A stretch of 64,000 nt of DNA from Rhodospirillaceae bacterium (GCA_024638465.1 JAHEKF010000006.1:10777-74776), one strand, 5' to 3'; positions 1,710 to 38,134 are shown, numbered from the stretch's first letter. The notes: a model not told the origin generated them from the letters alone. Numbers and translations: made by a program.

Positions 1710-1846
1710 TAGACCAGCTTGGGATTCCGGGGATCGACTTTTAAGGTGATTCTGCCGCCATCGGCATATAATCCCGGGTGTGCAGTGCGGACTGTCTAGG
1801 AGAATCGGCCAGTGAGCCACCGGCAAACCGGCCCAGGAGCTTGACG

Positions 1847-3310
1847 ATGAGCAAGGAAGTCGGAATCAGCGGATTTGCCGTCTACGTTCCGCCGTACCGA
1901 GTCGATCTCCAGGATTGGTGCGATTGGACCGATGCACCCTGGGACAAGACCAGCGCCGTCATCGGCAACAGCTTCCGAATGCGCGGTCCGCATCAAAGCG
2001 TCTACACGATGGCTGCGACCGCCGTCATGCGACTCATCGACAATTACGAGATCGACCCGCGACGAGTCGGCTTCCTGGGGCTGGGCACGGAATCCAGTAC
2101 GGACAATTCGGCGGGCGCCGTCATTGTGAAGGGCATGATCGACGAAGCCCTTCGCGCGAGAGGCATGCCGCCCGTCAACCGTCATTGCGAAGTCCCCGAA
2201 CTCAAGCATGCCTGTCTCGGCGGCGTGTACGCAATGAAACACGGCTTGCGTTATCTCGCGCTCGAGGATCAGGATCGCTGCGCGATCGTCGTCAGCGCGG
2301 ATATCGCCGAATACGCGCGCGGCAGCTCCGGAGAGCCGACGCAGGGCGCCGGAGCCGTCGCCATGCTGCTCGAGACCGACCCCGATCTGCTGGAAATCGA
2401 TCTCAAGCGTATCGGCAGCGCTTCGGCGTATCGGGCCGTGGATTTCCGCAAGCCCGTTATGCGCAATCTCATTCGCGGCAAGCTCAACTGCCACTTCCAG
2501 GATCTGCCTGTTTTCAACGGCAAGTACTCGACGACCTGTTACCTGGACGAGACCCTGTATGCGCTCGACGACATGTTGCGCAAGCTCGGATCAGAACCCG
2601 CCGACTACTACAGAAGCCTGGCCGCAGCCTTTATGCATCGACCCTATCACCGCATGCCGATAACGTCCTTCGGGATGAGCTATCTGTTTGGCCTAGCTCA
2701 CAACGGCGCTGCGGGCATTGCCGAGCTCGATCAGCATTGCCAGGACGCGGGAATCGACGTCAATGCCGTGCTTGAAGAAATGCGCTCGGAACCGGACATC
2801 CTGCAACTCGTTCGTGACGGCGATATCGACACGGATGTTTACCCGCTCAGCGTTCAGCTGCTCAAGGAATTCCGCAAGAGCGAACTTTTCAATTCGCAGC
2901 TCGAAACCAAGATGTCGCTCGGTTCCGAACAGATGAAGGATATCGGCAACGTCTACTGCGCCGCGCTACCCGCCTGGATGGCGGCCGGACTCGAGGAGGC
3001 CGCGCTCTCGAATCGCGACCTGACTGGCGAGAAGATACTTGCGGTTGGCTACGGTAGTGGCGACGCCGCCGAAGCGATTCCGATGAAGCTGGCGGAGAAC
3101 TGGCAGGCCGCAGCCCGCAAGATCGCCTTCACGGAAGCGCTCGAACCGAAGCAAAACCTGACGCAGGCGCAGTACGAGATCCTGCACGACACGGGCGACG
3201 CGCCAGGACTCGGCGATCCCGCGGACGGTTTCGTGGTCGAGTCGGTCGGCGCGAGCTCCGATCCGAAATTCAGCGACGAAGGTATCGAGTACTACCGCTA
3301 CCTGAGCTGA
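1847..3310 (+). CDS. mvaS: hydroxymethylglutaryl-CoA synthase (long form, 487 aa)
   Basis: ATG 1847 follows AGGAG at 1835-1839. The sequence has initiation-condensing-enzyme features, with GLGTESSTDNSAG and the catalytic-Cys context ELKHACLGGVYA (ACxGG). It sits adjacent to the remaining mevalonate genes. Confidence 0.85.
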   Translation: MSKEVGISGFAVYVPPYRVDLQDWCDWTDAPWDKTSAVIGNSFRMRGPHQSVYTMAATAVMRLIDNYEIDPRRVGFLGLGTESSTDNSAGAVIVKGMIDEALRARGMPPVNRHCEVPELKHACLGGVYAMKHGLRYLALEDQDRCAIVVSADIAEYARGSSGEPTQGAGAVAMLLETDPDLLEIDLKRIGSASAYRAVDFRKPVMRNLIRGKLNCHFQDLPVFNGKYSTTCYLDETLYALDDMLRKLGSEPADYYRSLAAAFMHRPYHRMPITSFGMSYLFGLAHNGAAGIAELDQHCQDAGIDVNAVLEEMRSEPDILQLVRDGDIDTDVYPLSVQLLKEFRKSELFNSQLETKMSLGSEQMKDIGNVYCAALPAWMAAGLEEAALSNRDLTGEKILAVGYGSGDAAEAIPMKLAENWQAAARKIAFTEALEPKQNLTQAQYEILHDTGDAPGLGDPADGFVVESVGASSDPKFSDEGIEYYRYLS

Positions 3311-3401: not shown

Positions 3402-4013
3402 TCAGAGCGCTGCGATCTGCTCGTCGAGCAGGCTCAGAAGATCGTCAGGATTACCGTCCTCCAGCGCGGCTCTGTACTCGGCCCGCTTCAACGCGAGATC
3501 ACTGACGCCGTCGGCGATGACATTGATGATCTTCCAGCCCGCGGCAGTCTCGTGCAGAAGGTATTCGATCGGAATAGCCGGCTGCGCATCGCGCCGGATA
3601 GTCGCTGTGACCATCGCGCGCCCGGAATCCAGAATCTTGGTACTTTCGATGCTGAAAGTTTCCGTGGAGACCGTCCTGAAACGAGCCGCATAAGTCATGC
3701 TGCTCAATCGCGCGAATTTCTCGATGAACGTCTCGCGCTGGGCGGCGTCGAAGCCATCCCAATATCTTCGTGTCGCGAACTGCGCGATGAAAGGCAAATC
3801 ATGGGTTTCCGAAATTAGCGGCGCAAGCTGCTCGTATCGCCGGCCGATGGAGTTCGGCTCACTTCGTGCCGCAGCGATCAGTCCCACGTGAAGCGCGTTG
3901 ACGCTGGCAAGCGGTGACTCGTACCCGGCGGATGCCGGACGCTGTGCCAACGCGCCGCTCAGCCAAATCATCGGCAGGATGACGAGCGCGGGTTTTGCGC
4001 AATGAGTCATCAT
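3402..4013 (-). CDS. hpnM: MlaC/Ttg2D-family lipid-binding periplasmic protein, hopanoid-associated (HpnM-like)
   Basis: 203 aa with a signal peptide (PALVILPMIWLSGALA). It has MlaC-like length and helix/sheet pattern. It lies immediately downstream of hpnH in the same operon. Confidence 0.75.
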   Translation of the reverse strand: MMTHCAKPALVILPMIWLSGALAQRPASAGYESPLASVNALHVGLIAAARSEPNSIGRRYEQLAPLISETHDLPFIAQFATRRYWDGFDAAQRETFIEKFARLSSMTYAARFRTVSTETFSIESTKILDSGRAMVTATIRRDAQPAIPIEYLLHETAAGWKIINVIADGVSDLALKRAEYRAALEDGNPDDLLSLLDEQIAAL

Positions 4014-4021: not shown

Positions 4022-5143
4022 TTAACGGCGATCTGAGGCGCTGCTGCCAATCTCGTCTACGGGAATCGCCACTCCCGCTGGCTTGCCGTCGTGCAGGACA
4101 GGCAATTCAGGAGCCATCTCGCCGTCGAGACGCGGCCCGAACAGGAAAACGCGGAGCGCTTTTAGCGGGTTTGCGACCGTATGGTCGACGGCCGTGCCTT
4201 CGTAGCCGCAATGCACCATGCAATCATCGCATTTGGGGTTTCGACCCGCGCCATAACGCTCCCAATCGGTCGCTTCCATAAGCTCGCTGAACGTCTCGGC
4301 ATAGCCCTCGTCGACGAGGAGATAGCACGGTTTCTGCCAACCGAAAACGTTATAGGTTGGATTGCTCCAGGGCGTGCACTGATAACTTTGATTGCCTGCG
4401 AGGAAATCCATGAACAGGCTGGATTGATTGAAACGCCATCTGCTGCCGCGCTCGCGGCCGATTTTAAAGATCTCGCGAAATAACCGCTTGGTCTGCCTGC
4501 GGCCGAGAAATACGTCCTGTCTGGGTGCGTGCTGATAGCTGTAGCCCGGCGACACGGTAATCCCTTCGAGCCCGAGAGTCATCGCGTGGTCGAAGAAATC
4601 TGCAACGTCGGCAGCATCCTCTCCATTGAACAACGTGCAGTTTGCCGTAACTCGAAACCCGCGACTGCGCGCAAGCTCGATGGCAGCGACTGCCTTATCG
4701 AACACGCCCTCACGGCAAACCGACTCATCGTGACGTTCGCGGTTACCATCGAGATGCACGGACCACGTGAAGTACGGCGATGGCTCATACTCATCTATCT
4801 TCTGCTGAAGCAGCAACGCATTGGTGCAGAGGTAGACGAATTTCTTGCGCGCGACAATTCCGCGAACGATCTTCGGCATGTCCTTGTGGATCAGTGGCTC
4901 GCCGCCCGGTATTGACACGACGGGCGCGCCGCAGTCATCCACGGCGCGGAGAGCGTCTTCGACCGACACACGCTTCTTCAGAATCTCGGCCGGATAGTCG
5001 ATCTTGCCACAGCCCGCGCAGGCCAGATTGCACTGGAACAGAGGCTCGAGCATGAGAACGAGCGGATAACGCTTTCTGCCGCGGAGCTTCTGCTCGAGTA
5101 TGTAGCGGCCGACACGGTAGGTCTGAACCAGTGGAATGCTCAT
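4022..5143 (-). CDS. hpnH: adenosylhopane synthase, radical SAM (HpnH)
   Basis: The sequence RYPLVLMLEPLFQCNLACAGCGKIDYP contains the CxxxCxxC radical-SAM motif in the characteristic HpnH context. The protein is 373 aa. Its start overlaps the idi stop (ATGA). Confidence 0.92.
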   Translation of the reverse strand: MSIPLVQTYRVGRYILEQKLRGRKRYPLVLMLEPLFQCNLACAGCGKIDYPAEILKKRVSVEDALRAVDDCGAPVVSIPGGEPLIHKDMPKIVRGIVARKKFVYLCTNALLLQQKIDEYEPSPYFTWSVHLDGNRERHDESVCREGVFDKAVAAIELARSRGFRVTANCTLFNGEDAADVADFFDHAMTLGLEGITVSPGYSYQHAPRQDVFLGRRQTKRLFREIFKIGRERGSRWRFNQSSLFMDFLAGNQSYQCTPWSNPTYNVFGWQKPCYLLVDEGYAETFSELMEATDWERYGAGRNPKCDDCMVHCGYEGTAVDHTVANPLKALRVFLFGPRLDGEMAPELPVLHDGKPAGVAIPVDEIGSSASDRR

Positions 5144-5748
5144 GTCGTTGATCGACTCTCGTTCGATATGACGGCGATCGAGCTATCGTTGCCGCCGAGA
5201 ATGTTGTCGAGATACCGGCGTGTAATTTGCGACCATTCCATCTTCAGCCAGGGAGTAAAGCTCTCGGGAGTGGCCGCGATCATCTCATCCATCGATATTG
5301 CGGGAACATAGCGAATTTCGGAGATTTCACGGTCGTTGAAATCAACGGAGCCACTGTACCGGCCGTAGTAGACCCAGCAGTATTCGTGCTCCGCGCCTAC
5401 GGCTCCATATTGCGCCTGATATTTGAACTTGTAGAGGAAATGAAGCGGACACTCGATGGCGAGTTCCTCGGCGAGACGCCGCGAGATAGCCTGCTCCATA
5501 GTTTCCCCAACGCGCGGATGCGAGCAACAGGTATTGGACCAGTATTCCGGCCACAAAGGCTTCTCCGCACTTCGACGTTGCAGCAACAATTCGTCGTCTT
5601 CATTGAACAGGAATATAGAAAACGCCCGATGGAGAATACCGTTTCCGGAATGGCAGTCGCTCTTCGCACTCTGCCCGATCTCGCGGTCGAGTTCATCGAC
5701 AAGAATCAGCTCTTCGCCGGAGCTGGATACGACTTCGCTACGTGCCAT
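5140..5748 (-). CDS. idi: isopentenyl-diphosphate delta-isomerase, type 1 (Nudix fold)
   Basis: Motifs LHRAFSIFLFN, WSNTCCSHP (catalytic Cys) and AEHEYCWVY (catalytic Glu) are present. The track ORF extends to 5865, but the ATG at 5746-5748 (MARSEVVSS...) fits IDI length and gives an 11-nt overlap with the upstream gene. Confidence 0.9.
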   Translation of the reverse strand: MARSEVVSSSGEELILVDELDREIGQSAKSDCHSGNGILHRAFSIFLFNEDDELLLQRRSAEKPLWPEYWSNTCCSHPRVGETMEQAISRRLAEELAIECPLHFLYKFKYQAQYGAVGAEHEYCWVYYGRYSGSVDFNDREISEIRYVPAISMDEMIAATPESFTPWLKMEWSQITRRYLDNILGGNDSSIAVISNESRSTT

Positions 5749-8014
5749 TGAGATCCGCTCCCAGATCGACGCGAATAGCCTGATAGCCAGCCGCACGAAT
5801 CGCGTTGACGACGGACGAGGAATCACCGTCACAGAGTGCAATGATAGAGCCTCCGCCGCCACCACCGGTCAACTTCGCACCCAGTGCGCCGTTTTCTCTT
5901 GCAATATCAACGAGTTGCTCAAGTTCTGGCGTCGAGACCTGAAGCGCATTGAGCATCCCGTGACAGACGTTCATGAGTTCGCCGAGCGTGACCAGGTCCT
6001 CGTCCTGGATCGCCTGCACGCCGCGTAGAACGAGCGCATCGATCTGGTCGAAGATACGCTCGTAGAGCTTGCGGTCCTGTTGCCAGGCCGCGCTGACGCG
6101 ACCCACGGTCTTCGCCGTGAGGCCTTCGTAGCCGGTCATGCCGATCACCATCGGAATCGGGGTCTTGATGTTCAGCGGCTCGACCAGCGGCGGCGTACCG
6201 CTACGAAAAACGAGCGGTTTGCCGTAGCACGCAAGGGTGTTGTCGATCCCGCTCGGGCTGCCGTGCGCAACTTTCTCGGCTTCGAACGCCAGCCGGTTAA
6301 CTTCTGCGTCGTCCAGACCTAACGAGAAGTGCTTGTCGATCGCTCTGACGATCGCAACCGCCATCGCTGCTGACCCGCCGAGTCCCATACTGCGTGGAAC
6401 TTCCGGAAAGACTTCGATTCGCATTGCGCGACCGCTGAGACCGAGTTCATCGAGCATGACGCCGGCCGACATCTCGAATCCGCGGCGCTGGCTCGCGTTG
6501 GGCGACAGCTGAAACTCCACGCCCCAGCGCGGTATCAGAAAGTGGATGCCGTCATCGCAGTCCTCGACCAGCGCCCTGATCGTCATCGGAACCGGCGCTG
6601 CAATCGCATGCCGGCCGTAGACGACCGCGTGCTCACCGAGAATGACCACCTTGCCGTAGCCGACACCGAATTTGTCCTGTTTCTCGAGCTCGCGCTTGCC
6701 TTCACGGCCGCTCGGAACAACGGGATTCGCGATCTCCTCGATGATCTCCTGTGCCTTCCAGACTTTGATCTCACCACTGAGGATCAGGCGCTCCAGGACC
6801 TCATCGAAGATCTCCGCGGGCGCACCCGCCGCGGTCACGACACTTCGTGCATGCAACGTCATGTGACCTTTCTGAATACCTTCTGTCGCGAGAGCGCGTA
6901 TGGCGGCGAAATTCTGTGCCAGACCGGCCGCAGCCATGACCTGGGCGAGTTCGGTCGCGGACTCTACACTGAGCAGACGCATGTTCAGAGCGGCGGTGGG
7001 ATTCGACTCGACGGCGGAACCCACAGTCCCGACTTTCAGCGGCATCTCGAGGCTGCCGCAGAGATTGCCATCCTCGTCCGCCCACCACTTCGTTAAGGAC
7101 GAATACCGTCCACTGCGTGCCGCGAACGCATGCGCGCCGGCTTCGATCGCTCTCCAGTCGTTTCCGGTCGCTATCGCGATCGGATCGATACCGTTCATGA
7201 TGCCTTTGTTATGGGTCGCGGCTCGATACGGATCGACTGCGGCAAATTCGCCGGCGACAATGATTCCGTCGCGCGCCTCTTCGCCGCTGTAGCCGCGGCC
7301 GCTAAGCGCAGCTACCGGAATTCTGCAGTTCGCCCTGACGAGTGCCCGGTCATTCAGATTGGACAAAATTCTTAAGAATACTTCTCCGCCCGTGATCGAC
7401 TCGATCAACGAAGCAACGCCCTCGCACATTCCATTGACGAGATTCGCACCCATCGCATCGCGGGTATCGACGAGCAGATGCACAACCAACATGGGTTTTC
7501 CACTCGACGGCAGCGGATGAACGAACAGCTCTATGTCCTGGGCGCCTCCGCCGCGCGCTACCATCTTCGGATGGAGACTGTTGGCCAGGCTCACGATCTC
7601 CTGGCGACGATCTCTCAACGCCTGCTTCGCGGTCTCGATATCGGGCACGTTTACGACCTGAATCTGGCCGATCAGAATCGGATCGGTCGCTTCCGTTTCG
7701 AAGCCGCCGTTCTCACCGATCAGCTTGGACGCTGAACTCAGCGCCGCAACGACCGAGGGCTCTTCGATTGCCATCGGCACAACGTAGCGTTTGCCGTTGA
7801 CGCGAAGGTTCATGCCCAGCCCCAAAGGCAGACCCATTACGCCGACGACGTTCTCGATCATCTTGTCGGCCGCATCGAGTTCCAGCGTATGTTTCCCGGT
7901 CGCCAGCGCGCGGAAATCGCTACCCGTGAGCAAGCCGCGCTCATGAACCGCGCGTACCCGCTCTTCGACACTCAGCCGGTAGAACTCCGGAATCCTCGAT
8001 CGATCGTCAGTCAC
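5738..8014 (-). CDS. bifunctional class II HMG-CoA reductase (aa 1-430) / mevalonate kinase (aa 449-758) fusion
   Basis: One uninterrupted 758-aa ORF. The N-terminal part carries ENVVGVMGLPLG, AIEEPSVVAA, DAMGANLVN, THNKGIMNGIDPIAIATGNDWRA and QKGHMTLHAR, the class II HMGR catalytic E/K/D/H contexts. The C-terminal part carries GKVVILGEHAVVYG, GLGGSAAMAVAIV and KLTGGGGGGSIIAL, which are GHMP kinase motifs I-III. The start is GTG. Confidence 0.9.
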   Translation of the reverse strand: MTDDRSRIPEFYRLSVEERVRAVHERGLLTGSDFRALATGKHTLELDAADKMIENVVGVMGLPLGLGMNLRVNGKRYVVPMAIEEPSVVAALSSASKLIGENGGFETEATDPILIGQIQVVNVPDIETAKQALRDRRQEIVSLANSLHPKMVARGGGAQDIELFVHPLPSSGKPMLVVHLLVDTRDAMGANLVNGMCEGVASLIESITGGEVFLRILSNLNDRALVRANCRIPVAALSGRGYSGEEARDGIIVAGEFAAVDPYRAATHNKGIMNGIDPIAIATGNDWRAIEAGAHAFAARSGRYSSLTKWWADEDGNLCGSLEMPLKVGTVGSAVESNPTAALNMRLLSVESATELAQVMAAAGLAQNFAAIRALATEGIQKGHMTLHARSVVTAAGAPAEIFDEVLERLILSGEIKVWKAQEIIEEIANPVVPSGREGKRELEKQDKFGVGYGKVVILGEHAVVYGRHAIAAPVPMTIRALVEDCDDGIHFLIPRWGVEFQLSPNASQRRGFEMSAGVMLDELGLSGRAMRIEVFPEVPRSMGLGGSAAMAVAIVRAIDKHFSLGLDDAEVNRLAFEAEKVAHGSPSGIDNTLACYGKPLVFRSGTPPLVEPLNIKTPIPMVIGMTGYEGLTAKTVGRVSAAWQQDRKLYERIFDQIDALVLRGVQAIQDEDLVTLGELMNVCHGMLNALQVSTPELEQLVDIARENGALGAKLTGGGGGGSIIALCDGDSSSVVNAIRAAGYQAIRVDLGADLNGT

Positions 8015-8993
8015 TTGCGTGCCCTTCGATTACCAGTCCGCTTTCATAGATATCCAAATCCAGCACCTTGTAGTCAGCAGCCACAGCCTGTTCGAACGCG
8101 GCAAGAGCATCCGGGTCCTGTGACCAGACGATACCGACATCTCCACCGCCGGCACCACTTATTTTATAGACAAGATCGAACCGCTCCGAGTGCCCCGTGA
8201 TTTTCTTGTGCTCCGTCGTCACGATCTCAGCGCCGATACGGCCCCCAAGCGCGTCCAGAGCATGTCCGTAGGCCTTTACCGCAGCCAGAAATCCGGGCGC
8301 GTCGTTGTCTCTCGCCGCTTCGTGACCTCGCGTTGCCCAATCGGCGAGATGACTTATGATCGCATCTGCCTCCTTCGGGCGCGCATCGCGCCACGCGTCG
8401 AACGCTGTGACGAGGCCGCTCGTGGCCGCGGATTTCCCGGAGTAGATTACTCTGAACTGAACGCCATCCGGCAAAGCGGCGTTCGAGACGTTCGGCTCTC
8501 CACCGTCGTCGAGTGCATAGCAGATGACACCACCCGTCAGGCTGGCGGCGATATCGAGTCCGCTTCCCTTTCCCCCCTGAAAATTCCGATGCAACTCGAT
8601 TAGCCGCCGGAGAGAAGGCGTTGCCGCCAATCCGGCAAAGCGTGACCAGGCTGCATCCCACGCGGTAAGCGCTGCCGCACTCGAGCCGATTCCCAACTTC
8701 TGTCCCTGCTCGAAGAACGCGGCTGTATCGACAGACCCTCGCCACGGCCCGGGAGCGGAATCAGGCGCGATGACGAGGTCCACCAGTGGCGCGCCGCTCG
8801 GCGCACCGACTGCAAAGCTCAGTTCATCAGGCTCGGGAGCCCGAACAGCAAGATGACAGAGATCGTCATCGCTCAACATGATCTCGACGCGACAGAGTCT
8901 GTCTATCGCCATCACGAGTGCGCTGGCACCGCACAGTACGGCGTATTCGCCGAGCAAGACGAGTTTTCCCGGTGCGGTCGCAGTAATCGTCAC
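8007..8993 (-). CDS. mvaK2: phosphomevalonate kinase (GHMP family)
   Basis: GHMP motifs APGKLVLLGEYAVL, GIGSSAAALTAW and KISGAGGGDVGIV are present. The gene sits between the decarboxylase and the HMGR::MK fusion. GTG start, with an 8-nt overlap with the next gene. Confidence 0.85.
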   Translation of the reverse strand: MTITATAPGKLVLLGEYAVLCGASALVMAIDRLCRVEIMLSDDDLCHLAVRAPEPDELSFAVGAPSGAPLVDLVIAPDSAPGPWRGSVDTAAFFEQGQKLGIGSSAAALTAWDAAWSRFAGLAATPSLRRLIELHRNFQGGKGSGLDIAASLTGGVICYALDDGGEPNVSNAALPDGVQFRVIYSGKSAATSGLVTAFDAWRDARPKEADAIISHLADWATRGHEAARDNDAPGFLAAVKAYGHALDALGGRIGAEIVTTEHKKITGHSERFDLVYKISGAGGGDVGIVWSQDPDALAAFEQAVAADYKVLDLDIYESGLVIEGHASD

Positions 8994-8996: not shown

Positions 8997-9968
8997 TCAG
9001 AGCGCTTCCAGACCCGGGCCGAGCCCGCTTTCGATGACATCGATCACGCCGGGCACGCCACGCAGCGCCGTGACCACGGTGGGCACAACATCCGGGGTGC
9101 AAACTGCCTTGACCTGTGGTCCCGCGTCGATCGTGAAAAACACCGGCGTCCCTGCGGCTTGAAGTGCCGCGCAGGCTTGCAGGCACGCGACGGTCGCAGG
9201 GTTCCAGTAAAGCAGCGGTGGTTGGTTGGCCATCGCGGCAGCGTGCATCTTGAGGCAACTGTGTTCAGCGACTCTGGCAAGTGCTGCAAAGTCTTTCGCC
9301 AGTATTGCGCTTCGTCCCAGAGCGAGATCGGCTGCGCTCGTCTCTACCCACGCCGAATAATAGGGCGACGTCGCCGCCGACGCAGCCATGCCGGAGCGTG
9401 ATCCAACCGGCTTCTCGCCGCGGCCGGTAATCGCGATAACGACAACCAAGGGCCACGCAGCTGCGTCCAGAAGTGGTTCCGCATAGCTGTCGCTGCCATC
9501 GACTGCCGAGCCGGCGTGCATCTCCACGAAGCCACCGAAAATCGAGCGGGCAGCTGAGCCGGAACCGCGACGCGCAAGCACGCTCAGCTCTCGCTCCGTC
9601 AGCTCCAGACCGAGTGCGCGGGTCGCCGCCGCGCTCAACGCGGCGAATCCCGAGGCGGATGACGCGAGCCCCGCGCCGGTCGGGAAGTTATTCTCGCTGC
9701 TGACTCTTGCCGGTAGAGTCACGCCAGCGAGTTCGCGTACGAGATCCAGGGTGTTCGAGGCTCGCGCGAGCTGGTCGGGACGGGAAGTGCCGCCGAGCAG
9801 GAACTCGTCACCCGATAATTCGTCCGAGAACTCGACTTCGGTATCGGACCAAAGTCGATCGAGCGTGACCGATATCGATCCCACAGCGGGGATATTCAGC
9901 CTGTCATCCGCCTTTCCCCAGTACTTGATCAGAGCGATATTCGCTCGGGCTCGAACGCGCGCTTTCAT
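8997..9968 (-). CDS. mvaD: diphosphomevalonate decarboxylase
   Basis: ANIALIKYWGKADDRLNIP and GLASSASGFAALS are hallmark MDD motifs. 323 aa. Confidence 0.92.
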   Translation of the reverse strand: MKARVRARANIALIKYWGKADDRLNIPAVGSISVTLDRLWSDTEVEFSDELSGDEFLLGGTSRPDQLARASNTLDLVRELAGVTLPARVSSENNFPTGAGLASSASGFAALSAAATRALGLELTERELSVLARRGSGSAARSIFGGFVEMHAGSAVDGSDSYAEPLLDAAAWPLVVVIAITGRGEKPVGSRSGMAASAATSPYYSAWVETSAADLALGRSAILAKDFAALARVAEHSCLKMHAAAMANQPPLLYWNPATVACLQACAALQAAGTPVFFTIDAGPQVKAVCTPDVVPTVVTALRGVPGVIDVIESGLGPGLEAL

Positions 9969-9977: not shown

Positions 9978-10964
9978 CTACAGGTAATGATGCTCGCGAA
10001 ACCAGCCGACCGCGGCGGCAATGGCCTCGACGGGCGGGCGTGACTGGTAGCCGAGCTCCTGCCTGGCTTTTTCGCTGGAGAAGTACATGCGTTTAGCAGA
10101 CATTCGAACAGCGTCGAGCGTGACACGCGGCTCGACAGCCGCGAGCCGCGCCCAGGCTTCCGCCAGAAAGGCGACCGGAATAACGACCCGGTGCGGCAAG
10201 CGAACTGATGGCGGTTTACGCCCGGTTTGCGCGGCGACGAACGCAAGTATTTCGCGAAGGGTCAGGTCCTCACCGCCGAGAATATACCGCTCTCCCAAAT
10301 GACCTTTCTCCAGGGCGAGCAGGTGGCCCTCCGCGACATCATCCACATGAACGACATTGAGGCCGGTATCGACATAGGCCGGAATTCGCCCCGCCGCAGC
10401 GTCGACGATAATCCTCCCGGTCGGCGTTGGCTTGAAATCACCGGGACCGATAGGCGTTGAAGGATTGACCGTAACGACGTCGAGTCCAAGTTTGCGGGCA
10501 CGCTCACCGACCGCGATCTCGGCTCGATACTTCGAGCGCTTATACGTACCGGTCATATCTGCTATCGAAACCGGCGTCTCTTCGTTCGCAGGACGGCCAT
10601 CCGCATGCAGGCCCAGAGTCGCGACACTCGATGTGTACACAACTCGATCGACGCCAGCAGCCGCGGCCGCCTCGATGACGTTGACGGAACCTTCGATGTT
10701 GGTCCGGTTCATGTTTTCCGGGTCCGGAACCCAGATTCGATAGTCGGCCGCGACGTGAAAAACCGCGCGGCAGCCCGACATCGCAGGCGCGAGCGACTCG
10801 CTGACGGTGATGTCGCCTTCGGCGATCTCCGCGTCGAGTCCGGCCAGGTTCTGCCGATCACTGCCTGGACGAACGAATGCCCGCACCCGCTCTCCGCGCG
10901 CCAGCAATGCGCGGACGACGGCAGCACCGACGAAACCGTTGCCGCCTGTAACCAGATTCGTCAC
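9978..10964 (-). CDS. hpnA: hopanoid-associated NAD-dependent sugar epimerase/reductase (HpnA)
   Basis: Contains the Rossmann motif VTGGNGFVGAAVV and the YKRSK (YxxxK) motif of extended SDRs. 328 aa. GTGA overlap with hpnN. Confidence 0.85.
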   Translation of the reverse strand: MTNLVTGGNGFVGAAVVRALLARGERVRAFVRPGSDRQNLAGLDAEIAEGDITVSESLAPAMSGCRAVFHVAADYRIWVPDPENMNRTNIEGSVNVIEAAAAAGVDRVVYTSSVATLGLHADGRPANEETPVSIADMTGTYKRSKYRAEIAVGERARKLGLDVVTVNPSTPIGPGDFKPTPTGRIIVDAAAGRIPAYVDTGLNVVHVDDVAEGHLLALEKGHLGERYILGGEDLTLREILAFVAAQTGRKPPSVRLPHRVVIPVAFLAEAWARLAAVEPRVTLDAVRMSAKRMYFSSEKARQELGYQSRPPVEAIAAAVGWFREHHYL

Positions 10965-13573
10965 GCTGTCCGGAAGATATTCAATAAGGCAGGAAGCACG
11001 ATCAGTGTCGCCGCCAGCGTCGCGATCATACCCATCGTCAATACCTGGCCCATGCTGGACATACCGAGATGAGATGCGAACGCGAGGTTGCCGAAACTTG
11101 CGATCGTGGTAAGTCCGCTGGCAAGCACGGCGCGCGATGTACTCGTGCCACTGATATTCCCGTCCGTCGGCGGCTCTGAGCGCATGCGATGAACGATATG
11201 TATGCCGTTGTCAACGCCGATTCCCAACAGTAACGGCAATGCGATGACGTTGGCGAAGTTGAACTCGAGACCGACCACGACTGTGGCCGCGGCTGTTGCA
11301 GCCGCAGCGAGCAGGACCGGAACAAGGACCAGTAACGCATCGCGCCATCGCGCAAGAAATATAAAAAGGATAATGCTGACGAGGATCAGCGCATAGGTCA
11401 GCGCCAGCTCGAATGAACGCGCTACCGTTCGCCCTGCTTCTTCGTAGACGACCGGCAATCCGGTCGCAGTTCTTACAACGGACCTGACGCTCGACACGAA
11501 GCGCTCGGACTGCATATTGTCCGTCACATCGACTGCCGGCTGGATCTCGATCAGGCGGCTGCCGTCAGTGGCGATCCAGCGATCCAGCAGGTCCGGCGGG
11601 AGGTCCTCTAGCGTGATGGAATTCGCGTAGGAGAGCGCTGTGTCGATCCGTCCGAGCTGCACTGGAAGCGTCCGCAGCAAATCCGAATCGAGACGGACCA
11701 GCTTCGCCTGCCGCGCCATCTCGGGCTGAGAACCGATAACCGCCAGCAGATTTCCAAGCGACGCTCCCAGCGTGACGAGGCTCGGACTCGGCACGGACAC
11801 CGCAGCTACGCGCGCGTTGAGCCCGACGAGCGACGCCAGCAACGCATCGGGCTCAGGTTCGACTGACGCAAAATCCGCAAAGTCCGGCCCGAGCAGCAGG
11901 CCAATGTCTTCCAGCAACAGCAATTTGGTGTCCTGGTCGGACGGGACGAGCGAGGCGGCGGTAGCGACGGAGTCGACTGTATCGAGCTCCGCCAGCGCCT
12001 GAGACCACTCGATTGCTCTGGCCTCATCAGGTGCCAACGCCACCATATTGAGCGGCAGCGCGTCGCCGTCGCGCGCAAGCTCCTGCAGCGTCTGCACCGA
12101 TTCGGTATCCGGATCGCGCAAATTGACCGGGTTGCGATCGAATCCGATTCGCGGCACCAGGATCGCCGACACAACCGCGATCGCGACCGCCGAGATCAGA
12201 ATTTTCCAGGGATAGTCGAGCACGAGCGACAGACAGCCCGCTCCGAGCCACGGCCGCCGTACCCGCGAATCGTCTCTCAGGACCAACGATATCAACGCGG
12301 GAAGCAGCGTGACGCTGACGATGAGACTCAAAAACATGCCTGTTCCGGAAATCAGTCCGAGCTCCGACACGCCGGAGAAAGGCGTTGGGATAAAGGCATA
12401 GAATCCTGCCGCGGTTGTGAAGCTACAGATCACGAGTGAGGTGCCAACGCCGCCGACGGTCGCGACGATCGCCTCGTCGAGTCCGGCGCCATCGCCGCGA
12501 AGCTCGTTCAGGCGCAGGCCAATATGCAGGATGAAGTCGACACCCAGCCCGATATATAAAACGGCGAACGCCACCGAGATCAGGTTCAGATTACCGATGG
12601 TTGCGGCCGCAAACGCAGCGGTTAACGACAGGCCGACGAGCAGTGTCGTAATTGAAATCACGAGCAATGCGACCGAGCGCAACGCCGCGTAAAGGATGGC
12701 GGCGACGAGCAGGAGGGCGGCCAGTCCGGCCACCGCAGCGCCGCGCGTTACGCTCGTCATTTCCTCGTGTTCCATCGCGACGGTACCCGTGACACGCGCA
12801 CGCACGTCGCCAGGCGCGGCCAAAGAGAGCTCGGCAATAATCTCTCGTATCCCCTCGATAGCGGCCGCCGCGGGGCGCGGTGAGGAAAAATCCTGCACCG
12901 GCTGCAGGATCACATAGCGCCTTGCCGGTCCGCCGCGCTCGCCTCCCAGCAATGCCTGCCACGACAGCGCGCGACTCTGGCCGCTCGCGGCGGCATCGAA
13001 CACGCGCGCCGTTTCGGCATAGAGCGGATCCGTCTCCGGCTCCCCATACGCGACGATCTCGGAAACAACATCGACGAATTCCGCGCCCGAGTAGTTCTGC
13101 TTCAGTCGTCCTGTCAGCGGTTGCGCTCGCGCAAGCCGGTCCGTGAGCGACTCGAGTTCGTCCACGTCGAGATACAACATACCGTGACGCTCGAAAAATT
13201 CGCCTGCCCCAGGCACGACGATTCCGCGATAGAGCGCCGGAGTTTCCCGTAGTCGTTCGGCCAGGAGCAGCGCGGCTGCCTCGGCGTCTTCCGCGATTGC
13301 TGCATCGACAACGATGACGATATTTCGATCGCGAATCGGGAATTTCTCGCGGAAAGCAAGGTAATCCTGACGCCATTCGAGCTCCGCGGAGATCATGTCC
13401 GCGGTATCGGTATTAAGCCCCAAATTCCGCGAAGCGAACCAGGCTGACAGTGCCGCCAATGCCATACAGACGACGATTGTGAGTGCGCGACGGCGCAGAA
13501 CCAGCCCGACCCAGACTCGCAACGCTTGCGCAATTCGAATCTCGATCTGACCCTGCTTCATCGCTTCAATCAC
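10961..13573 (-). CDS. hpnN: RND/MMPL-superfamily hopanoid transporter (HpnN)
   Basis: 870 aa with two blocks of about 6 TM helices separated by large soluble loops, which is RND topology. The N-terminus resembles the HpnN family. It is embedded between hpnG and hpnA. Confidence 0.88.
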   Translation of the reverse strand: MIEAMKQGQIEIRIAQALRVWVGLVLRRRALTIVVCMALAALSAWFASRNLGLNTDTADMISAELEWRQDYLAFREKFPIRDRNIVIVVDAAIAEDAEAAALLLAERLRETPALYRGIVVPGAGEFFERHGMLYLDVDELESLTDRLARAQPLTGRLKQNYSGAEFVDVVSEIVAYGEPETDPLYAETARVFDAAASGQSRALSWQALLGGERGGPARRYVILQPVQDFSSPRPAAAAIEGIREIIAELSLAAPGDVRARVTGTVAMEHEEMTSVTRGAAVAGLAALLLVAAILYAALRSVALLVISITTLLVGLSLTAAFAAATIGNLNLISVAFAVLYIGLGVDFILHIGLRLNELRGDGAGLDEAIVATVGGVGTSLVICSFTTAAGFYAFIPTPFSGVSELGLISGTGMFLSLIVSVTLLPALISLVLRDDSRVRRPWLGAGCLSLVLDYPWKILISAVAIAVVSAILVPRIGFDRNPVNLRDPDTESVQTLQELARDGDALPLNMVALAPDEARAIEWSQALAELDTVDSVATAASLVPSDQDTKLLLLEDIGLLLGPDFADFASVEPEPDALLASLVGLNARVAAVSVPSPSLVTLGASLGNLLAVIGSQPEMARQAKLVRLDSDLLRTLPVQLGRIDTALSYANSITLEDLPPDLLDRWIATDGSRLIEIQPAVDVTDNMQSERFVSSVRSVVRTATGLPVVYEEAGRTVARSFELALTYALILVSIILFIFLARWRDALLVLVPVLLAAAATAAATVVVGLEFNFANVIALPLLLGIGVDNGIHIVHRMRSEPPTDGNISGTSTSRAVLASGLTTIASFGNLAFASHLGMSSMGQVLTMGMIATLAATLIVLPALLNIFRTA

Positions 13574-14327
13574 CGGCCATGGCTGCGTCGTCGAACACTA
13601 GACCGTGCGGAACCAGCAGTGCGGAAGCAGCCGCTAGCGATCGACGCGCGGCACGGTAACGACGGAACAGGTTCACAAGACTCGGCCAGTCGCGCGGGTT
13701 GACTAATACCGCCCATGCCGCACCCGGTTTTCGATTGCCGGCCTCGTCAATCCACGCTTCAACGCCGGCCGGCAATGAATCTTCACTAGTATCGACTACG
13801 ACCCGGACAGCGACGAAAGGACGCCTCGCATCTGCTGACGCGCGCGCGATCGCGGCCGATTCCATATCGACTGCAACGGCGCCCGTAGTAGTTGCTATCG
13901 CCGCTTTCTCGGTCGCGGTCTTTAACACGTCAGGCGACTGATAGAGATCGCCTTCATCAACTGGAAACCGCGTTTTGAGACTGCGACAGAGTTGCATACG
14001 CCAGCGAGAGTCCGTGTCGAAAACCGCGCCGGATTGCGCTCGCACTCGCCGCGGCACGACAATCGTGCCGCTCCGAAGCCCGCGTTGCAGGCCACCTGCA
14101 ACTCCCCACGACACGATCGCTGTTGCACCGGCTGCAAGCGCGGTACGCGTTGCGTCATAGGCGCGATCTTGACCGGGACCGCATTGGTACACATGAATCG
14201 GGGACTGGTTAAGTGCGTCGATCCTGGCATCGAGCGAAGCGTGTTCGAATGCGAGCGCCGAAATGACGGCTATGTCGCTCGCCGACCCCGCCTCATCGAT
14301 CGTGTATGGACTAGAGCCGGCCCGCAT
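13566..14327 (-). CDS. hpnG: hopanoid-associated phosphorylase/nucleosidase (adenosylhopane nucleosidase, HpnG)
   Basis: PNP/UDP-family features: AVISALAFE, SWGVAGGL and VAVDMESAAIA. The track ORF starts at 14432, but the ATG at 14325-14327 (MRAGSSPYT...) gives the expected length of about 250 aa and a 17-nt overlap with sqs. Confidence 0.85.
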   Translation of the reverse strand: MRAGSSPYTIDEAGSASDIAVISALAFEHASLDARIDALNQSPIHVYQCGPGQDRAYDATRTALAAGATAIVSWGVAGGLQRGLRSGTIVVPRRVRAQSGAVFDTDSRWRMQLCRSLKTRFPVDEGDLYQSPDVLKTATEKAAIATTTGAVAVDMESAAIARASADARRPFVAVRVVVDTSEDSLPAGVEAWIDEAGNRKPGAAWAVLVNPRDWPSLVNLFRRYRAARRSLAAASALLVPHGLVFDDAAMAGD

Positions 14328-15447
14328 CCAACCGTTCCAGCGGCGACACGCGGGGACGGAGATCGGGACTCGACTCAGGCGACTCCAGCGGCAGTCCGGC
14401 CGCGGCAAGCGAGAACAACGCTCGCAGCACATAGTCGCTACGAAGCGTGAGATTAGTCGCGAATATTGTCGCCTTTACGCTTCGGCGCGAAATCTTGACC
14501 TGCTTCGAAGAAGAGAAATCCGGATTAGCGTGCAGCTTGCGAAGCGTCAGCACTGCCAGACCGATCGCCCAGAGACAGAATTTTCTGATGCCAGCCTCGC
14601 GGCCTGGAATAATGAGCGTGTAGTCGAGCGCCACGCGCAGGTGTCGATGAGCGATCCCGATAAGTTCGTTGAGCCCCTCGCGAAATACATCGGAGCCATG
14701 CTCGCGATCGAGGTTTTCGAGATCGAATTCGGCTTCGCTGAAGACGGAGCGCGGCAGCCAGCACGTCTCGGCCTGCCGATCCTCCCAGATGTCCTTGAGG
14801 ATATTGGTCAGTTGCAGGCCCTGGCCGAACGACAGCGCAAGCCGCATCATTTCTTCGCGACGCGGTTGCAACTCCGGGCAGTGAACGCAAAAAAGCTCTG
14901 TCAGCATCTCGCCAACGACACCGGCAACGAAGTAGCAGTAGTCGGCCAGTTCATCGGTATCCCCGAGGCCGGCAAGACTTTTGCGTCGCTGAAACTCCGG
15001 CATGCCCCGACACATGATTTCAACACAACGCGTTAGTGCCTCGCGCTCCTGCATAGAAAACCCGGAAGTAACGCGGATTACGGTCGCCGTTCCGGCAACC
15101 AGGTCGCGCTCATCATCGAGTGTCCTCGAGGACAGTAGCGGCAGCAGGTCGGCGGAGAACGTTTCCGCATCCTCCTCGCCCCGGACGATCTCGACGAAGC
15201 GCTGGTGAAACTCGGATTTCTGTTCGTTATCGAGCCCGACGTCGTCCTCGATGGTGTCGGCCAGCCGACACAGCAGATACGCGTTTGCGACGACCTGAGC
15301 GAGACGTTCAGGCAACACGGGAATCGTCAGCGCGAAAGTTCGCGAAACGCCCGGCAGTATCTGTTTCTGGTACTCGAGATCGGTCAATGAGTCGACGACC
15401 GGTCCGCTGTTGATTGGCTTCACACTCACCCGGGCCGTTCGCGCCAC
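14311..15447 (-). CDS. sqs: squalene synthase (single-enzyme, FDFT1/Sqs type; trans-isoprenyl diphosphate synthase head-to-head family)
   Basis: Motifs GVSRTFALTIP, CRLADTIEDD (first Asp-rich), YCYFVAGVVGEMLT and GLQLTNILKDIWED are present. The start codon is uncertain because only 22 nt separate it from ispA. Confidence 0.85.
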   Translation of the reverse strand: MARTARVSVKPINSGPVVDSLTDLEYQKQILPGVSRTFALTIPVLPERLAQVVANAYLLCRLADTIEDDVGLDNEQKSEFHQRFVEIVRGEEDAETFSADLLPLLSSRTLDDERDLVAGTATVIRVTSGFSMQEREALTRCVEIMCRGMPEFQRRKSLAGLGDTDELADYCYFVAGVVGEMLTELFCVHCPELQPRREEMMRLALSFGQGLQLTNILKDIWEDRQAETCWLPRSVFSEAEFDLENLDREHGSDVFREGLNELIGIAHRHLRVALDYTLIIPGREAGIRKFCLWAIGLAVLTLRKLHANPDFSSSKQVKISRRSVKATIFATNLTLRSDYVLRALFSLAAAGLPLESPESSPDLRPRVSPLERLDAGRL

Positions 15448-15469
15448 ATCGGTGGTAGGATCAGCGCGT

Positions 15470-16378
15470 ATGATAGCACGCGCCCCAGAGCAGACTTTCG
15501 CGGACCGGCTCGAGCATTATCGTTCGCGCGTCGACGCCGAACTCGAGCAGGTCGTCGCCGGCGCAAAAGACGTGCCCGCGCGACTGCACGATGCGATGAC
15601 CTATTCCGTGCTCGGCGGCGGAAAGCGAATACGCCCGCTGCTGGCTTATGCAAGCGCAGAGCTATTCGAGCTCGACGAGTCGCTTATCGACCCGGTTGCG
15701 GCTGCGGTCGAGCTCGTGCACGCCTATTCGCTTGTCCATGATGACCTGCCTGCTATGGACGACGACGACCTGCGGCGCGGCAGGGCCACGACGCACCGCC
15801 AGTTCGATGAAGCCACCGCGATACTCGCTGGCGACGCGCTCCAGGCTCTCGCGTTCGAAGTCTTGACCAACGATGTCCGACTCGGAAAGAACCCCTCAAC
15901 GCAGATCCAGACCACCCGGCGACTTGCTTCGGCAATCGGGCCCTCTGGAATGGCAGGCGGTCAGGCAATGGATATAGCGGCTGAGGGAGCACGCATCGAC
16001 GAAAAGACGCTGGAAGATATCCACCGCCGGAAGACCGGCGAACTGATTCGCGCGTCGATCGCAATACCGGGAATACTCGCCAGCACGTCTCGCGAGATCT
16101 CCATGGAGCTCGAAGCGTTCGGCAGCGATATCGGGCTGGTATTTCAGATTCGCGACGATTTGCTCGAGGTTGAGCAGGACACGGCAACGTTGGGCAAGAA
16201 CGCCGGCTCGGACGAAGAGAAAGAGAAAGCCACCTACCCGTCGATTCTCGGCGTCAAAGGCGCGGAAAATCGTGCAAGCGAACTTTACTCTCGCGCAATG
16301 CAGAAGCTCGAGAACCTCGGAACGCGGTCTGAAGGGCTACGCTGGGTCTCCGACTACATCATCAATCGTTCGAACTGA
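15470..16378 (+). CDS. ispA: farnesyl diphosphate synthase (geranyltranstransferase)
   Basis: Motifs GGKRIRPLL, VHAYSLVHDDLPAMDDDDLRRG (FARM) and FQIRDDLLE (SARM) are present. ATG 15470 follows GGTAGGA. The track ORF begins earlier, at 15410. Confidence 0.92.
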   Translation: MIARAPEQTFADRLEHYRSRVDAELEQVVAGAKDVPARLHDAMTYSVLGGGKRIRPLLAYASAELFELDESLIDPVAAAVELVHAYSLVHDDLPAMDDDDLRRGRATTHRQFDEATAILAGDALQALAFEVLTNDVRLGKNPSTQIQTTRRLASAIGPSGMAGGQAMDIAAEGARIDEKTLEDIHRRKTGELIRASIAIPGILASTSREISMELEAFGSDIGLVFQIRDDLLEVEQDTATLGKNAGSDEEKEKATYPSILGVKGAENRASELYSRAMQKLENLGTRSEGLRWVSDYIINRSN

Positions 16379-34550: not shown

Positions 34551-35540
34551 TCAGGGATCGGGATGATCCGAAATGAGTTTCACAAAGTCATTCATGCCAA
34601 CGTTACCGCCGCTCAGAACGATTCCGACGCAACCGTAAGACTTCGCGGCACCCGCAAGCACATCTGCCAATGCGACCGCGCCGGAAGGCTCGAGCACGAG
34701 TTTGAGATGGCGCATTGCGAAAGCCATCGCATGGCATGCCTGCGCGTCCGACACTGCGTGGCCGCCAGTCAGCACCTCCCGGTTGATCGCGAAAGTGATC
34801 GCTCCCGGTTTATCGGCCATGAGCGCATCGCACAGTGTCTCGGGATGGCCCTTAACGACCTGCCGGCTATCCGCTTCGAGCGACCGTCGGGTTTCGTCGT
34901 AGCCTTCTGGCTCGACTGCGAAAATTTCGCAGTCGGGATACTCGGCCCTGACACTCAAGCCGCATCCCGCGATAAGCCCACCACCGCCGCATGGCGCGAA
35001 CATCGCATCCAGAGTCAGTCCCTCGGCACTCGCATAGGCTGCCAGCTCGATGCCAACCGTTCCCTGCCCGGCAATGATGTCGGGATGATCGAATGCGGGC
35101 ACGAGTGCCGCGCCTTTTTCCTCCGCGACATGCGCTGCGATATGTTCGCGATCCTCACGGTAGCGATCGTACAGCACGATGTCCGCACCGAGCGTCCGGG
35201 TATTGAACTGCTTGATCTTGGGCGCATCCTGCGGCATGACGATCGTGGAATCGACGCCGAGCCACTTCGCGGCAAGCGCGACCCCCTGAGCGTGATTTCC
35301 GGACGAGTAAGCAACGACGCCAGAGCTACGCTCGGTATGGCTGAGCTGGAGCAGTCGATTGAGTGCGCCCCGGATCTTGAAAGTGCCAGCGTGCTGCAGT
35401 GACTCGACCTTCACCAGGATCCGGCTGCCGGCTCGCTGGTTGAGGACTTCGGACTCCAGAATTGGTGTCGCGACAAGCCAGTCCCGAAGCCGCCCCGCAG
35501 CTTCTTCGATGTCATCGATTGTCGGCAGGACGTGAGCCAT
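34551..35540 (-). CDS. threonine/serine dehydratase (PLP-dependent, fold type II)
   Basis: Contains the PLP-Lys motif ESLQHAGTFKIRGA, plus SSGNHAQGVA and GGGGLIAG. The track ORF (to 36215) is over-extended antisense into the CDF gene, so I start the call at ATG 35538-35540 (MAHVLPTIDD...). Confidence 0.88.
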   Translation of the reverse strand: MAHVLPTIDDIEEAAGRLRDWLVATPILESEVLNQRAGSRILVKVESLQHAGTFKIRGALNRLLQLSHTERSSGVVAYSSGNHAQGVALAAKWLGVDSTIVMPQDAPKIKQFNTRTLGADIVLYDRYREDREHIAAHVAEEKGAALVPAFDHPDIIAGQGTVGIELAAYASAEGLTLDAMFAPCGGGGLIAGCGLSVRAEYPDCEIFAVEPEGYDETRRSLEADSRQVVKGHPETLCDALMADKPGAITFAINREVLTGGHAVSDAQACHAMAFAMRHLKLVLEPSGAVALADVLAGAAKSYGCVGIVLSGGNVGMNDFVKLISDHPDP

Positions 35541-35666
35541 GAGCCTCGAGATGCCCGAATTCCAGGCGACCACTATAGTCGACCAGGTCATTGTCGCCCT
35601 AGTCGCTGCCCGAAAACCCGCCCGCCACTTCCCCGCGATCGATTTGACTGAGACAATCGCGTCCCC

Positions 35667-38105: not shown

Positions 38106-38106
38106 C

Positions 38107-38134
38107 GTTTCCGCGGAAACAATTTCTAGAAATT
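38107..38134. repeat. two abutting perfect 14-bp palindromes
   Basis: GTTTCCGCGGAAAC is immediately followed by AATTTCTAGAAATT. They begin 2 nt after the ModF-like stop, at the left edge of the low-GC island. Confidence 0.6.

Follow-up and report, generated by a model that had tools for sequence, protein, structure and literature searches.

We found a gene in which a class II hydroxymethylglutaryl-CoA (HMG-CoA) reductase (HMGR) and a mevalonate kinase (MK) are joined in a single polypeptide. It lies on the minus strand at positions 5738..8014 of a stretch of 64,000 nucleotides (nt) from Rhodospirillaceae bacterium (GCA_024638465.1, JAHEKF010000006.1:10777-74776), which we call the window. By its architecture and catalytic completeness, this one gene codes for the enzymes of two consecutive steps of the mevalonate pathway. 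The HMGR-MK fusion is a genuine, widespread, uncharacterised and mis-named enzyme, and it involves no new chemistry. We estimate a probability of roughly 85% that it functions as a true bifunctional biosynthetic enzyme, in which the tether provides co-localisation, a 1:1 ratio and kinetic pulling, and that it does so in the context of hopanoid synthesis. We infer its enzymatic activities, its cofactor preference, the benefit of kinetic coupling and the hopanoid destination.

The open reading frame (ORF) starts with GTG, encodes 758 amino acids (aa) and has no internal stop codon, and the plus-strand translation of the same interval contains many stops. The original prediction, made from the DNA sequence by itself, described a single 758-aa ORF at 5738-8014 without an internal stop; translation bears this out and adds the strand, which had been left unstated. 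The GTG start is supported by the homologues of 745-760 aa, which cover 98-100% of the protein (100% in all but one case). Pfam identifies HMG-CoA_red at aa 16-389, GHMP_kinases_N at aa 520-597 and GHMP_kinases_C at aa 667-744, and the domain scores from Pfam and NCBIfam are far above chance level. Given these matches and the fact that both domains are catalytically complete by sequence, the proposal of a genuine single-polypeptide fusion of class II HMGR and MK holds. The motifs that had been cited for it are also all found at the residues given (full-protein numbering).

The reductase domain scores 368 bits against PF00368 (cut-off 27; profile positions 2-368 of 368) and 416 bits against NCBIfam TIGR00532 (cut-off 260; aa 5-389). 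It begins at residue 5, and so has neither an N-terminal extension nor a membrane anchor; no thiolase domain was found in the protein by Pfam or NCBIfam family searches. The domain is about 50% identical over 420 residues to the class II enzymes of Delftia, Pseudomonas mevalonii and Burkholderia. Foldseek, applied to this half of the protein, gives TM scores of 0.87-0.93 to the P. mevalonii and Delftia enzymes. The reductase motifs are AIEEPSVVAA (82-91), DAMGAN (186-191), THNKGIMNGID (267-277), GNDWRA (284-289) and QKGHMTLHAR (381-390). We checked the identities of E85, K270, D286 and H384, which align with P. mevalonii E83, K267, D283 and H381 and are invariant or at least 90% conserved in an alignment of 20 diverse fusions. 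The catalytic roles of Glu83, Lys267, Asp283 and His381 are established for the P. mevalonii enzyme. A three-helix C-terminal flap occupies approximately aa 379-429, and its helices lie at 379-394, 402-412 and 417-428 of the structural model, in which residue numbers are those of the full protein minus one.

The kinase domain matches the NCBIfam equivalog TIGR00549 with 237.7 bits (cut-off 163) at aa 454-727, which corresponds to profile positions 3-276 of 276. Its three GHMP motifs are GKVVILGEHAVVYG (454-467), GLGGSAAMAVAIV (544-556) and KLTGGGGGGS (714-723). K455, H462, S548, E580 and D591, whose identities we also checked, are invariant in the alignment of 20 diverse fusions. Presumably, K455, S548, E580 and D591 are the counterparts of rat MK K13, S146, E193 and D204. 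Mevalonate kinases in the PDB match this part of the protein with E-values from 1e-42 to 1e-22, and Foldseek gives TM scores of 0.79-0.86 to the Leishmania major and Methanosarcina mazei mevalonate kinases. The C-terminal domain is predicted to be an ATP-dependent mevalonate kinase.

The fusion occurs far beyond the window. In a search of 5.8 billion proteins clustered at 90%, the best 120 clusters listed are 79-94% identical to the window protein, are 745-760 aa long, have 98-100% query coverage and all contain the three Pfam domains. The assemblies behind these 120 clusters are from NCBI, JGI, ENA and Logan. When 1.84 billion representatives (50% identity clustering) were searched without filters and the domain order was confirmed using local phmmer, about 20 more full-length fused clusters emerged, with 35-66% identity, as well as many fragments that cross the junction. 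In addition, we scanned one genome per GTDB species, which resulted in 80 loci with 10-kb flanks, and checked their ORFs from stop to stop; both domains are in a single ORF in approximately 53 of the 80. Our gene-context counts use 58 fused loci, each of which is a stop-free single ORF. Among these are complete long-read chromosomes (OZ253541.1, OZ241345.1 and OY762279.1) and the cultured isolates Cryobacterium psychrotolerans CGMCC 1.5382 and Endozoicomonas sp. G2_2. The original prediction had suggested a domain-architecture search, and the outcome is that HMGR-MK is widespread, occurring in at least six phyla. The fusion is thus common in uncultured and some cultured bacteria. Three apparent larger fusions, in loci L061 (1535 aa from stop to stop), L012 and L047, were rejected: Pfam adds no domain to them, so their extra length is an upstream open frame in GC-rich DNA.

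The contig index has no entry for the exact window protein. The closest protein (P0001, 94% identity) is found in three separate JGI metagenomes (loci L081-L083), in which the order of 12 genes is identical to that in the window and the gene caller gives one product of 760 aa. Relative to this protein and to a relative with 78% identity, the ratio of nonsynonymous to synonymous substitution rates (dN/dS) is 0.02-0.07 in both domains, i.e., both are under strong purifying selection. These data bear on the idea that two genes were merged in the assembly or by a sequencing error, through a missed stop or an indel at about nt 6671-6724. Such an artefact is effectively refuted: four data sources contributed to the 120 closest clusters listed, in which the junction is uninterrupted, and it is also intact in the 58 loci with their long-read chromosomes and isolates. 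Moreover, the 94% relative comes from three independent metagenomes, there are no alignment gaps in the linker, and selection is strong on both sides of it. A frame break of this general kind, which demonstrates that such errors or pseudogenes do occur, is present within the MK part of a Nakamurella lactea metagenome-assembled genome (MAG). In this locus (L034:9929-12669), MK is split over two frames, with HMGR and the N-terminal half of MK followed by a separate C-terminal half of MK. The split is either an assembly frameshift or a pseudogene; the related gene in L016 is intact.

Another possibility is that one of the two domains is catalytically dead and serves as a regulatory or scaffolding pseudo-enzyme. 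One distant relative shows that a domain can decay in this architecture: in the metagenomic fused protein P0134 (763 aa), DAREPA replaces DAMGAN, TDCDCRA replaces TGNDWRA and GIRPRDS replaces GIQKGHM, the Pfam HMGR score is only 167 bits, and the kinase is intact. The reductase part of P0134 is possibly a pseudo-reductase. However, both domains of the window protein and its clade have intact catalytic and motif residues, neither domain shows relaxed dN/dS, and the cassette contains no second HMGR or MK gene. We therefore regard a dead domain as very unlikely.

In P. mevalonii, HMGR oxidises mevalonate to HMG-CoA, and the fusion could conceivably be a catabolic enzyme of this type, with some other role for its kinase. 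The best curated family is TIGR00532, which is named 'degradative', and the closest solved structures, at about 50% identity, are of NADH-dependent, oxidative-type enzymes (P. mevalonii, Delftia and Burkholderia). By contrast, the gene is flanked by genes for HMG-CoA synthase (HMGS), phosphomevalonate kinase (PMK), diphosphomevalonate decarboxylase (MDD) and isopentenyl diphosphate isomerase (IDI), i.e., a complete biosynthetic lower pathway. No HMG-CoA lyase-like match was found among the ORFs scanned, and a kinase that consumes mevalonate would compete with its oxidation.

The cofactor helix also argues against catabolism. In the fusion it reads H148-P-K-M-V-A-R154, where H148, K150 and R154 correspond to P. 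mevalonii D146, L148 and L152. Thus, the Asp that specifies NADH (D146 in P. mevalonii) is replaced by His148, and Arg154 occupies position 7 of the motif, which is an NADPH-type signature. According to a rule of Miller and Kung, in the form in which a 2026 paper (PMC13488460) quotes it, enzymes using NADH have Dx(V/L)xxxL and enzymes using NADPH have (H/Y)xSxxxR. Mutagenesis published in 2025 (PMC12292504) established that NADH specificity is set by an Asp at the helix position, and that the residue there is His or Tyr in class II enzymes that depend on NADPH. The fusion does not have the NADH-type helix, and HPKMVAR agrees with the NADPH-type motif at positions 1 and 7. Of the 53 sequences of the main fused clade, 50 have His at position 1 and all have Arg at position 7, with K, N, R or Q at position 3. 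We predict from this motif that the fusion reductase uses NADPH or both cofactors, which fits a biosynthetic role. A catabolic function appears extremely unlikely, and the NADPH-type helix HPKMVAR makes it probable that the public name 'HMG-CoA reductase, degradative' is incorrect for the fusion.

In the records that we examined, the public names are 'hydroxymethylglutaryl-CoA reductase, degradative' or simply 'hydroxymethylglutaryl-CoA reductase'. The first of these is assigned from the family model TIGR00532. It is attached to eight records that have a full MK domain (TDJ29074.1, TDJ46228.1, MCZ6585056.1, HEY5623153.1, HEY8520784.1, MDJ0721259.1, MEM9172938.1 and HOX44197.1), two of which carry IDI as well. 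Because these names mention only the reductase, pathway reconstructions based on names are likely to report MK, and in some lineages IDI, as missing. A biosynthetic enzyme may also be misread as a catabolic one, in groups that include Woeseiaceae, Rhodanobacteraceae, Nevskia and Calditrichaceae.

We constructed a rough neighbour-joining tree for each domain. In both trees, the fusions that occur in the order MDD > PMK > HMGR-MK form one clade. Its members in Gammaproteobacteria are Ca. Rariloculaceae, Nevskia, Dokdonella, Rhodanobacteraceae, Woeseiaceae and Salinisphaera, and the closest genome representative to the window is from Ca. Rariloculaceae (78%). Other members belong to Acidobacteriota, Calditrichaceae, Balneolaceae, Nakamurella, Cryobacterium and a Myxococcales MAG. 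This mixture of phyla suggests one old fusion that was spread partly by horizontal transfer.

Two further fusions have a different context, with the order HMGR-MK > MDD; they are in an unclassified bacterium (L053, where PMK follows) and an Ignavibacteriaceae MAG (L064). In the MK tree, L053 groups with unfused Myxococcota genes, and in the HMGR tree L053 and L064 are together outside the main fused clade. These positions indicate an independent fusion, so that the HMGR-MK architecture arose at least twice. Separate but adjacent HMGR > MK genes, whose frames overlap or closely abut, occur in Virgibacillus, Oceanobacillus and Paucisalibacillus (about 50-55% identity), and adjacent genes also occur in Myxococcus and Corallococcus (about 43-52% identity). 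Such pairs are likely to be the precursor state.

Other fusion forms exist. The domain order is reversed, MK-HMGR, in a Myxococcota protein (P0142, 704 aa, HOX44197.1). A triple fusion HMGR-MK-IDI, in which the isomerase is of the type 1 Nudix kind, is encoded in a Woeseiaceae MAG (L041:9472-12303), and occurs in a Desulfobacterales MAG (P0122, 952 aa, MDJ0721259.1) and in P0124 (928 aa). HMGR is fused to a squalene/phytoene synthase in P0150 (720 aa) and to a polyprenyl synthase in P0159 (786 aa). In isoprenoid clusters, HMGR thus seems to be fused frequently to other enzymes. With two or more origins and a reversed order, HMGR-MK is a clean example of a Rosetta-stone fusion.

The joint between the domains is the 18-aa linker PVVPSGREGKRELEKQDK, which is at aa 431-448, as originally proposed, and corresponds to nt 6671-6724. 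It directly follows the three-helix flap of the reductase. In class II reductases, this flap closes over the active site. An AlphaFold2 monomer model, built on the alignment of fusions, has a mean predicted local distance difference test score (pLDDT) of 86, with both domains near 90. The pLDDT is below 50 only in the linker, at residues 431-443 of the full protein (430-442 of the model), and in the C-terminal tail. The linker sequence is not conserved among homologues, and its length varies by up to about 25 residues. In some lineages the linker is about 11-15 residues shorter, and the shortest linkers still have about 10-13 residues. In codon alignments with the 94% and 78% relatives, it remains in frame and has no gaps. 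We found no PDB chain that spans both domains, using sequence and Foldseek searches; Foldseek matches each half on its own.

The last helix of the flap, immediately before the linker, contains a tryptophan (W419, nt 6758-6760) within the motif IKxWKA. Of 53 members of the main fused clade, 51 have Trp419, and none of 24 unfused relatives does. Because the independent fusions L053 and L064 and more distant fused clusters lack this residue, we rejected it as a universal signature of fusion. Trp419 could be either a docking residue or, because it is missing from those proteins, a mere marker of the clade.

The identities of the domains suggest the following reaction scheme. The N-terminal class II reductase would convert HMG-CoA to mevalonate and would probably use NADPH or both cofactors, and the C-terminal GHMP kinase would convert mevalonate and ATP to mevalonate-5-phosphate. 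The two domains would fold independently, connected by a short, flexible and poorly conserved tether that comes after the mobile flap. The fusion would ensure that both activities are synthesised 1:1 and are co-localised. The kinase step, which is effectively irreversible, would trap mevalonate where it is formed; in this way it would draw the freely reversible reaction of the class II reductase toward synthesis and limit the loss of mevalonate. The fusion gene is translationally coupled within the conserved MDD > PMK > HMGR-MK > IDI cassette. Reversibility of a class II reductase was shown in both directions for a relative (PMC12292504).

Several points weigh against this proposal. The benefit of kinetic pulling is something that we only infer. 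The triple fusions with IDI and the fusions of HMGR with other isoprenoid enzymes suggest that co-expression may be the sole selective advantage. The predicted TM score (pTM) of the model, only 0.55, leaves the orientation of the domains to each other undefined. The tether is disordered and evolves fast; its dN/dS is noisy, being 0.06 in the comparison with the 94% relative and about 1.4 in that with the 78% relative. At position 3, the cofactor helix has K/N/R/Q, unlike the Ser of characterised NADPH enzymes, and because of this deviation the use of the cofactor stays a prediction. As for the hopanoid context, no squalene-hopene cyclase (shc/hpnF), thiolase or gene of the methylerythritol phosphate (MEP) pathway was found among the window ORFs scanned. 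The cyclase may be located outside the window, and a pathway 'dedicated to hopanoids' is tentative.

A stronger version of coupling would be true channelling. For this, the domains would dock, involving the HMGR dimer or hexamer and the MK dimer, and mevalonate would be passed from site to site without equilibrating with the bulk. Several properties are compatible with channelling: the kinase step comes directly after the reductase step, the fusion is old, has been conserved across phyla and is subject to strong purifying selection, the clade-specific Trp419 could be a docking residue, and some lineages have the shorter linkers mentioned above. Against this, the linker is predicted to be disordered, and the monomer model, with its low pTM, has no consistent packing between the domains. 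Since the linker is also variable in length and sequence and evolves rapidly, the case for channelling is somewhat weakened. The absence of Trp419 from L053, L064 and the distant fused clusters adds to this; together with the disordered tether and the undefined geometry, it favours co-expression or co-localisation rather than a tunnel. Relatives that fuse HMGR with IDI, which catalyses a non-consecutive step, or with squalene synthase or prenyl synthase likewise fit co-expression and co-localisation better than a mevalonate tunnel. Overall, we consider direct channelling unlikely.

It is less easy to dismiss the idea that the fusion plays no kinetic part whatsoever. Loss of the stop codon between the members of an adjacent, translationally coupled hmgr-mvk gene pair would then have been a 'Rosetta-stone' merger, neutral or weakly advantageous, that simply fixed co-expression. 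This idea is consistent with the existence of HMGR > MK neighbours that are not fused and whose frames overlap or closely abut, with at least two origins and a reversed order, and with the disordered, variable tether. It is also consistent with the 11-nt overlap of the IDI gene and the fusion gene in the window and with the fusion of IDI in L041, P0122 and P0124. However, the main clade keeps the fusion without reversion in Gammaproteobacteria, Acidobacteriota, Calditrichota, Actinomycetota, Myxococcota and others, and the sole exception to this retention is the apparently frameshifted Nakamurella MAG. The recurrent, independent origin of the fusion suggests some advantage. A merger without kinetic consequences is a serious alternative, although we give it somewhat less than an even chance, and a bifunctional biosynthetic enzyme with kinetic pulling remains the explanation that we prefer.

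We found no paper, review or solved structure describing an HMGR-MK fusion in the full-text literature, although a passing mention in earlier comparative-genomics work is possible. The original prediction knew of no characterised HMGR::MK fusion, and both this literature search and the lack of a PDB chain over both domains agree with that. It also gave MvaE as the known bacterial fusion in the mevalonate pathway. In agreement, the natural fusions listed in a 2026 review on isoprenoid pathways in bacteria are only MvaE and IspDF, which leaves MvaE as the only one that the review names in the mevalonate pathway.

MvaE of Enterococcus faecalis is likewise a natural bifunctional protein of the mevalonate pathway with a class II HMGR, and the E. 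faecalis HMGR chain 7m1z (labelled acetyl-CoA C-acetyltransferase) matches the reductase part of our protein with an E-value of 1e-86. In MvaE, however, a thiolase is N-terminal to HMGR, so that steps 1 and 3 are combined, whereas the fusion described here has a C-terminal GHMP kinase and combines steps 3 and 4. IspDF is another widespread bacterial fusion of two enzymes that make isoprenoid precursors, but it belongs to the MEP pathway, its folds are unrelated to ours and its steps are non-consecutive. IspDF is thus a precedent that fusion need not mean direct channelling.

The stand-alone HMGRs of P. mevalonii, Delftia acidovorans and Burkholderia cenocepacia (1QAX, 6DIO and 6P7K) share the fold, the catalytic Glu/Lys/Asp/His and the flap with the fusion. 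They differ in that they end after the flap, are NADH-dependent and have Dx(V/L)xxxL, whereas the fusion continues into the kinase and has HPKMVAR. The stand-alone mevalonate kinases of L. major (2HFS/2HFU), Staphylococcus aureus (2X7I) and M. mazei (6MDE) are about 30% identical to the kinase domain and have the same fold, motifs I-III and the conserved Lys/Ser/Glu/Asp. Stand-alone mevalonate kinases have characterised feedback by prenyl diphosphates or by diphosphomevalonate. The unfused hmgr-mvk pairs of Virgibacillus, Oceanobacillus, Myxococcus and Corallococcus also have HMGR followed by MK, with 43-55% identity over aligned segments. They encode two polypeptides, in the order HMGR > MK > MDD > PMK, in contrast to MDD > PMK > HMGR-MK > IDI for the fusion.

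HMGR and the handling of mevalonate are classic bottlenecks in engineered mevalonate pathways, and synthetic fusions and scaffolds are widely used. The natural HMGR-MK and HMGR-MK-IDI proteins, with a reductase that is probably of the NADPH or dual cofactor type, would be ready-made parts for such engineering. With HMGR-MK, one can also ask whether a reversible class II reductase is biased by being tethered to an irreversible kinase. The fusion overturns no current understanding, and both of its activities are textbook knowledge.

The features of the window that relate to the fusion gene are collected in Table 1.

Table 1. Positions of the fusion gene, its domains and the genes around it, in window coordinates
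Feature	Position (nt)	Strand	Basis and remarks
Fused HMG-CoA reductase/mevalonate kinase gene	5738..8014	-	GTG start 8014-8012, TAG stop 5740-5738
Class II HMG-CoA reductase domain (aa 5-430)	6725..8002	-	TIGR00532, Pfam, about 50% identity to solved enzymes, Foldseek
Inter-domain linker PVVPSGREGKRELEKQDK (aa 431-448, 18 aa)	6671..6724	-	Low pLDDT, unconserved, gap-free against close relatives
Mevalonate kinase (GHMP) domain (aa 449-758)	5741..6670	-	TIGR00549, PDB matches, Foldseek, motifs I-III
HMG-CoA synthase (HMGS)	1778..3310	+	Pfam and NCBIfam; divergent; true start probably later (L081 orthologue 487 aa)
hpnM	3402-4013	-	TIGR03481, 148 bits, slightly below cut-off of 160
hpnH	4022-5143	-	TIGR03470, 550 bits, above cut-off; directly downstream of IDI
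Type 1 IDI, 202 aa	5140..5748	-	NF002995, TIGR02150; ATG at 5748 overlaps fusion end by 11 nt
Divergent GHMP kinase, probable PMK	8007..8993	-	TIGR01220 69 bits, TIGR00549 65 bits, both below cut-offs (166, 163)
Diphosphomevalonate decarboxylase (MDD)	8997..9968	-	TIGR01240, 281 bits (cut-off 171); Pfam MVD-like_N, MDD_C
hpnA	9978-10964	-	490 bits, above cut-off
hpnN RND transporter	10961-13573	-	842 bits, above cut-off
hpnG-like phosphorylase	13566-14432	-	160 bits, slightly below cut-off
Squalene-synthase-like SQS_PSY protein	14311-15447	-	Below cut-off
Farnesyl diphosphate synthase (FPPS)	15410..16378	+	NF045485, 354 bits; divergent; true start probably later (L081 orthologue 302 aa)

The genes of this block occur in the order FPPS< SQS> HpnG> HpnN> HpnA> MDD> PMK> HMGR-MK> IDI> HpnH> HpnM> HMGS<, where SQS denotes the squalene-synthase-like protein. 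The order MDD > PMK > HMGR-MK is conserved across the fused loci, and IDI is immediately downstream of the fusion in 45 of the 58. In L081-L083, a 202-aa IDI is called with the same overlap on the fusion. Upstream, the TGA stop of the GHMP kinase gene overlaps the GTG start of the fusion gene. A GHMP kinase at this location is conserved in most loci, across phyla. The L081 orthologue of the window's upstream kinase has no Pfam match on record, and the window protein scores low; these kinases probably represent a divergent PMK family missed by current models.

The mevalonate cassette is inside a hopanoid (hpn) cluster, together with squalene synthase and farnesyl diphosphate synthase, in the window and in six other loci (L005, L006, L010, L011, L014 and L081). 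More generally, hpn genes adjoin the fusion in 17 of the 58 fused loci, especially in Rhodanobacteraceae MAGs and in the window's own lineage. We found no description in the literature of a mevalonate cassette in a hopanoid cluster. This location suggests a dedicated supply of precursors for hopanoids, and it is probable from the gene context that the mevalonate pathway of the window feeds hopanoid synthesis. The insertion into the cluster thereby hints at a precursor supply dedicated to membrane triterpenoids in environmental Gammaproteobacteria.

A more far-reaching interpretation is that the fusion is the covalent core of a mevalonate metabolon. The metabolon would channel HMG-CoA to isopentenyl diphosphate (IPP), would be encoded by a self-contained cassette that spread horizontally over at least six phyla, and would be dedicated to supplying hopanoid or triterpenoid precursors. 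The coupled cassette, the covalent attachment of IDI in some lineages and the location of Trp419 on the flap hint at such a complex. We consider it improbable. If true, it would imply a separate precursor supply for membrane triterpenoids, possibly in bacteria that also have the MEP pathway.

Among the hopanoid-related genes, the squalene-synthase-like protein at 14311-15447 is closer to the single-enzyme squalene synthase model TIGR01559 (111 bits, below the cut-off) than to HpnC or HpnD, and no hpnE was found among the window ORFs scanned. The window contains no match to Rfam families and no tRNA.

Elsewhere in the window, the GC content falls to 0.53-0.56 at about 38000-42000, and the GC skew there is positive. 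The small plus-strand ORFs in this region mostly have no Pfam match; exceptions are AIG2-like and DinB-family proteins. The region may be a small acquired island. Finally, a 554-aa ORF at 34551-36215 on the minus strand matches threonine or hydroxyaspartate dehydratases only at residues 227-550. Its N-terminal 226 aa could represent an extra domain, or else the true start is later.

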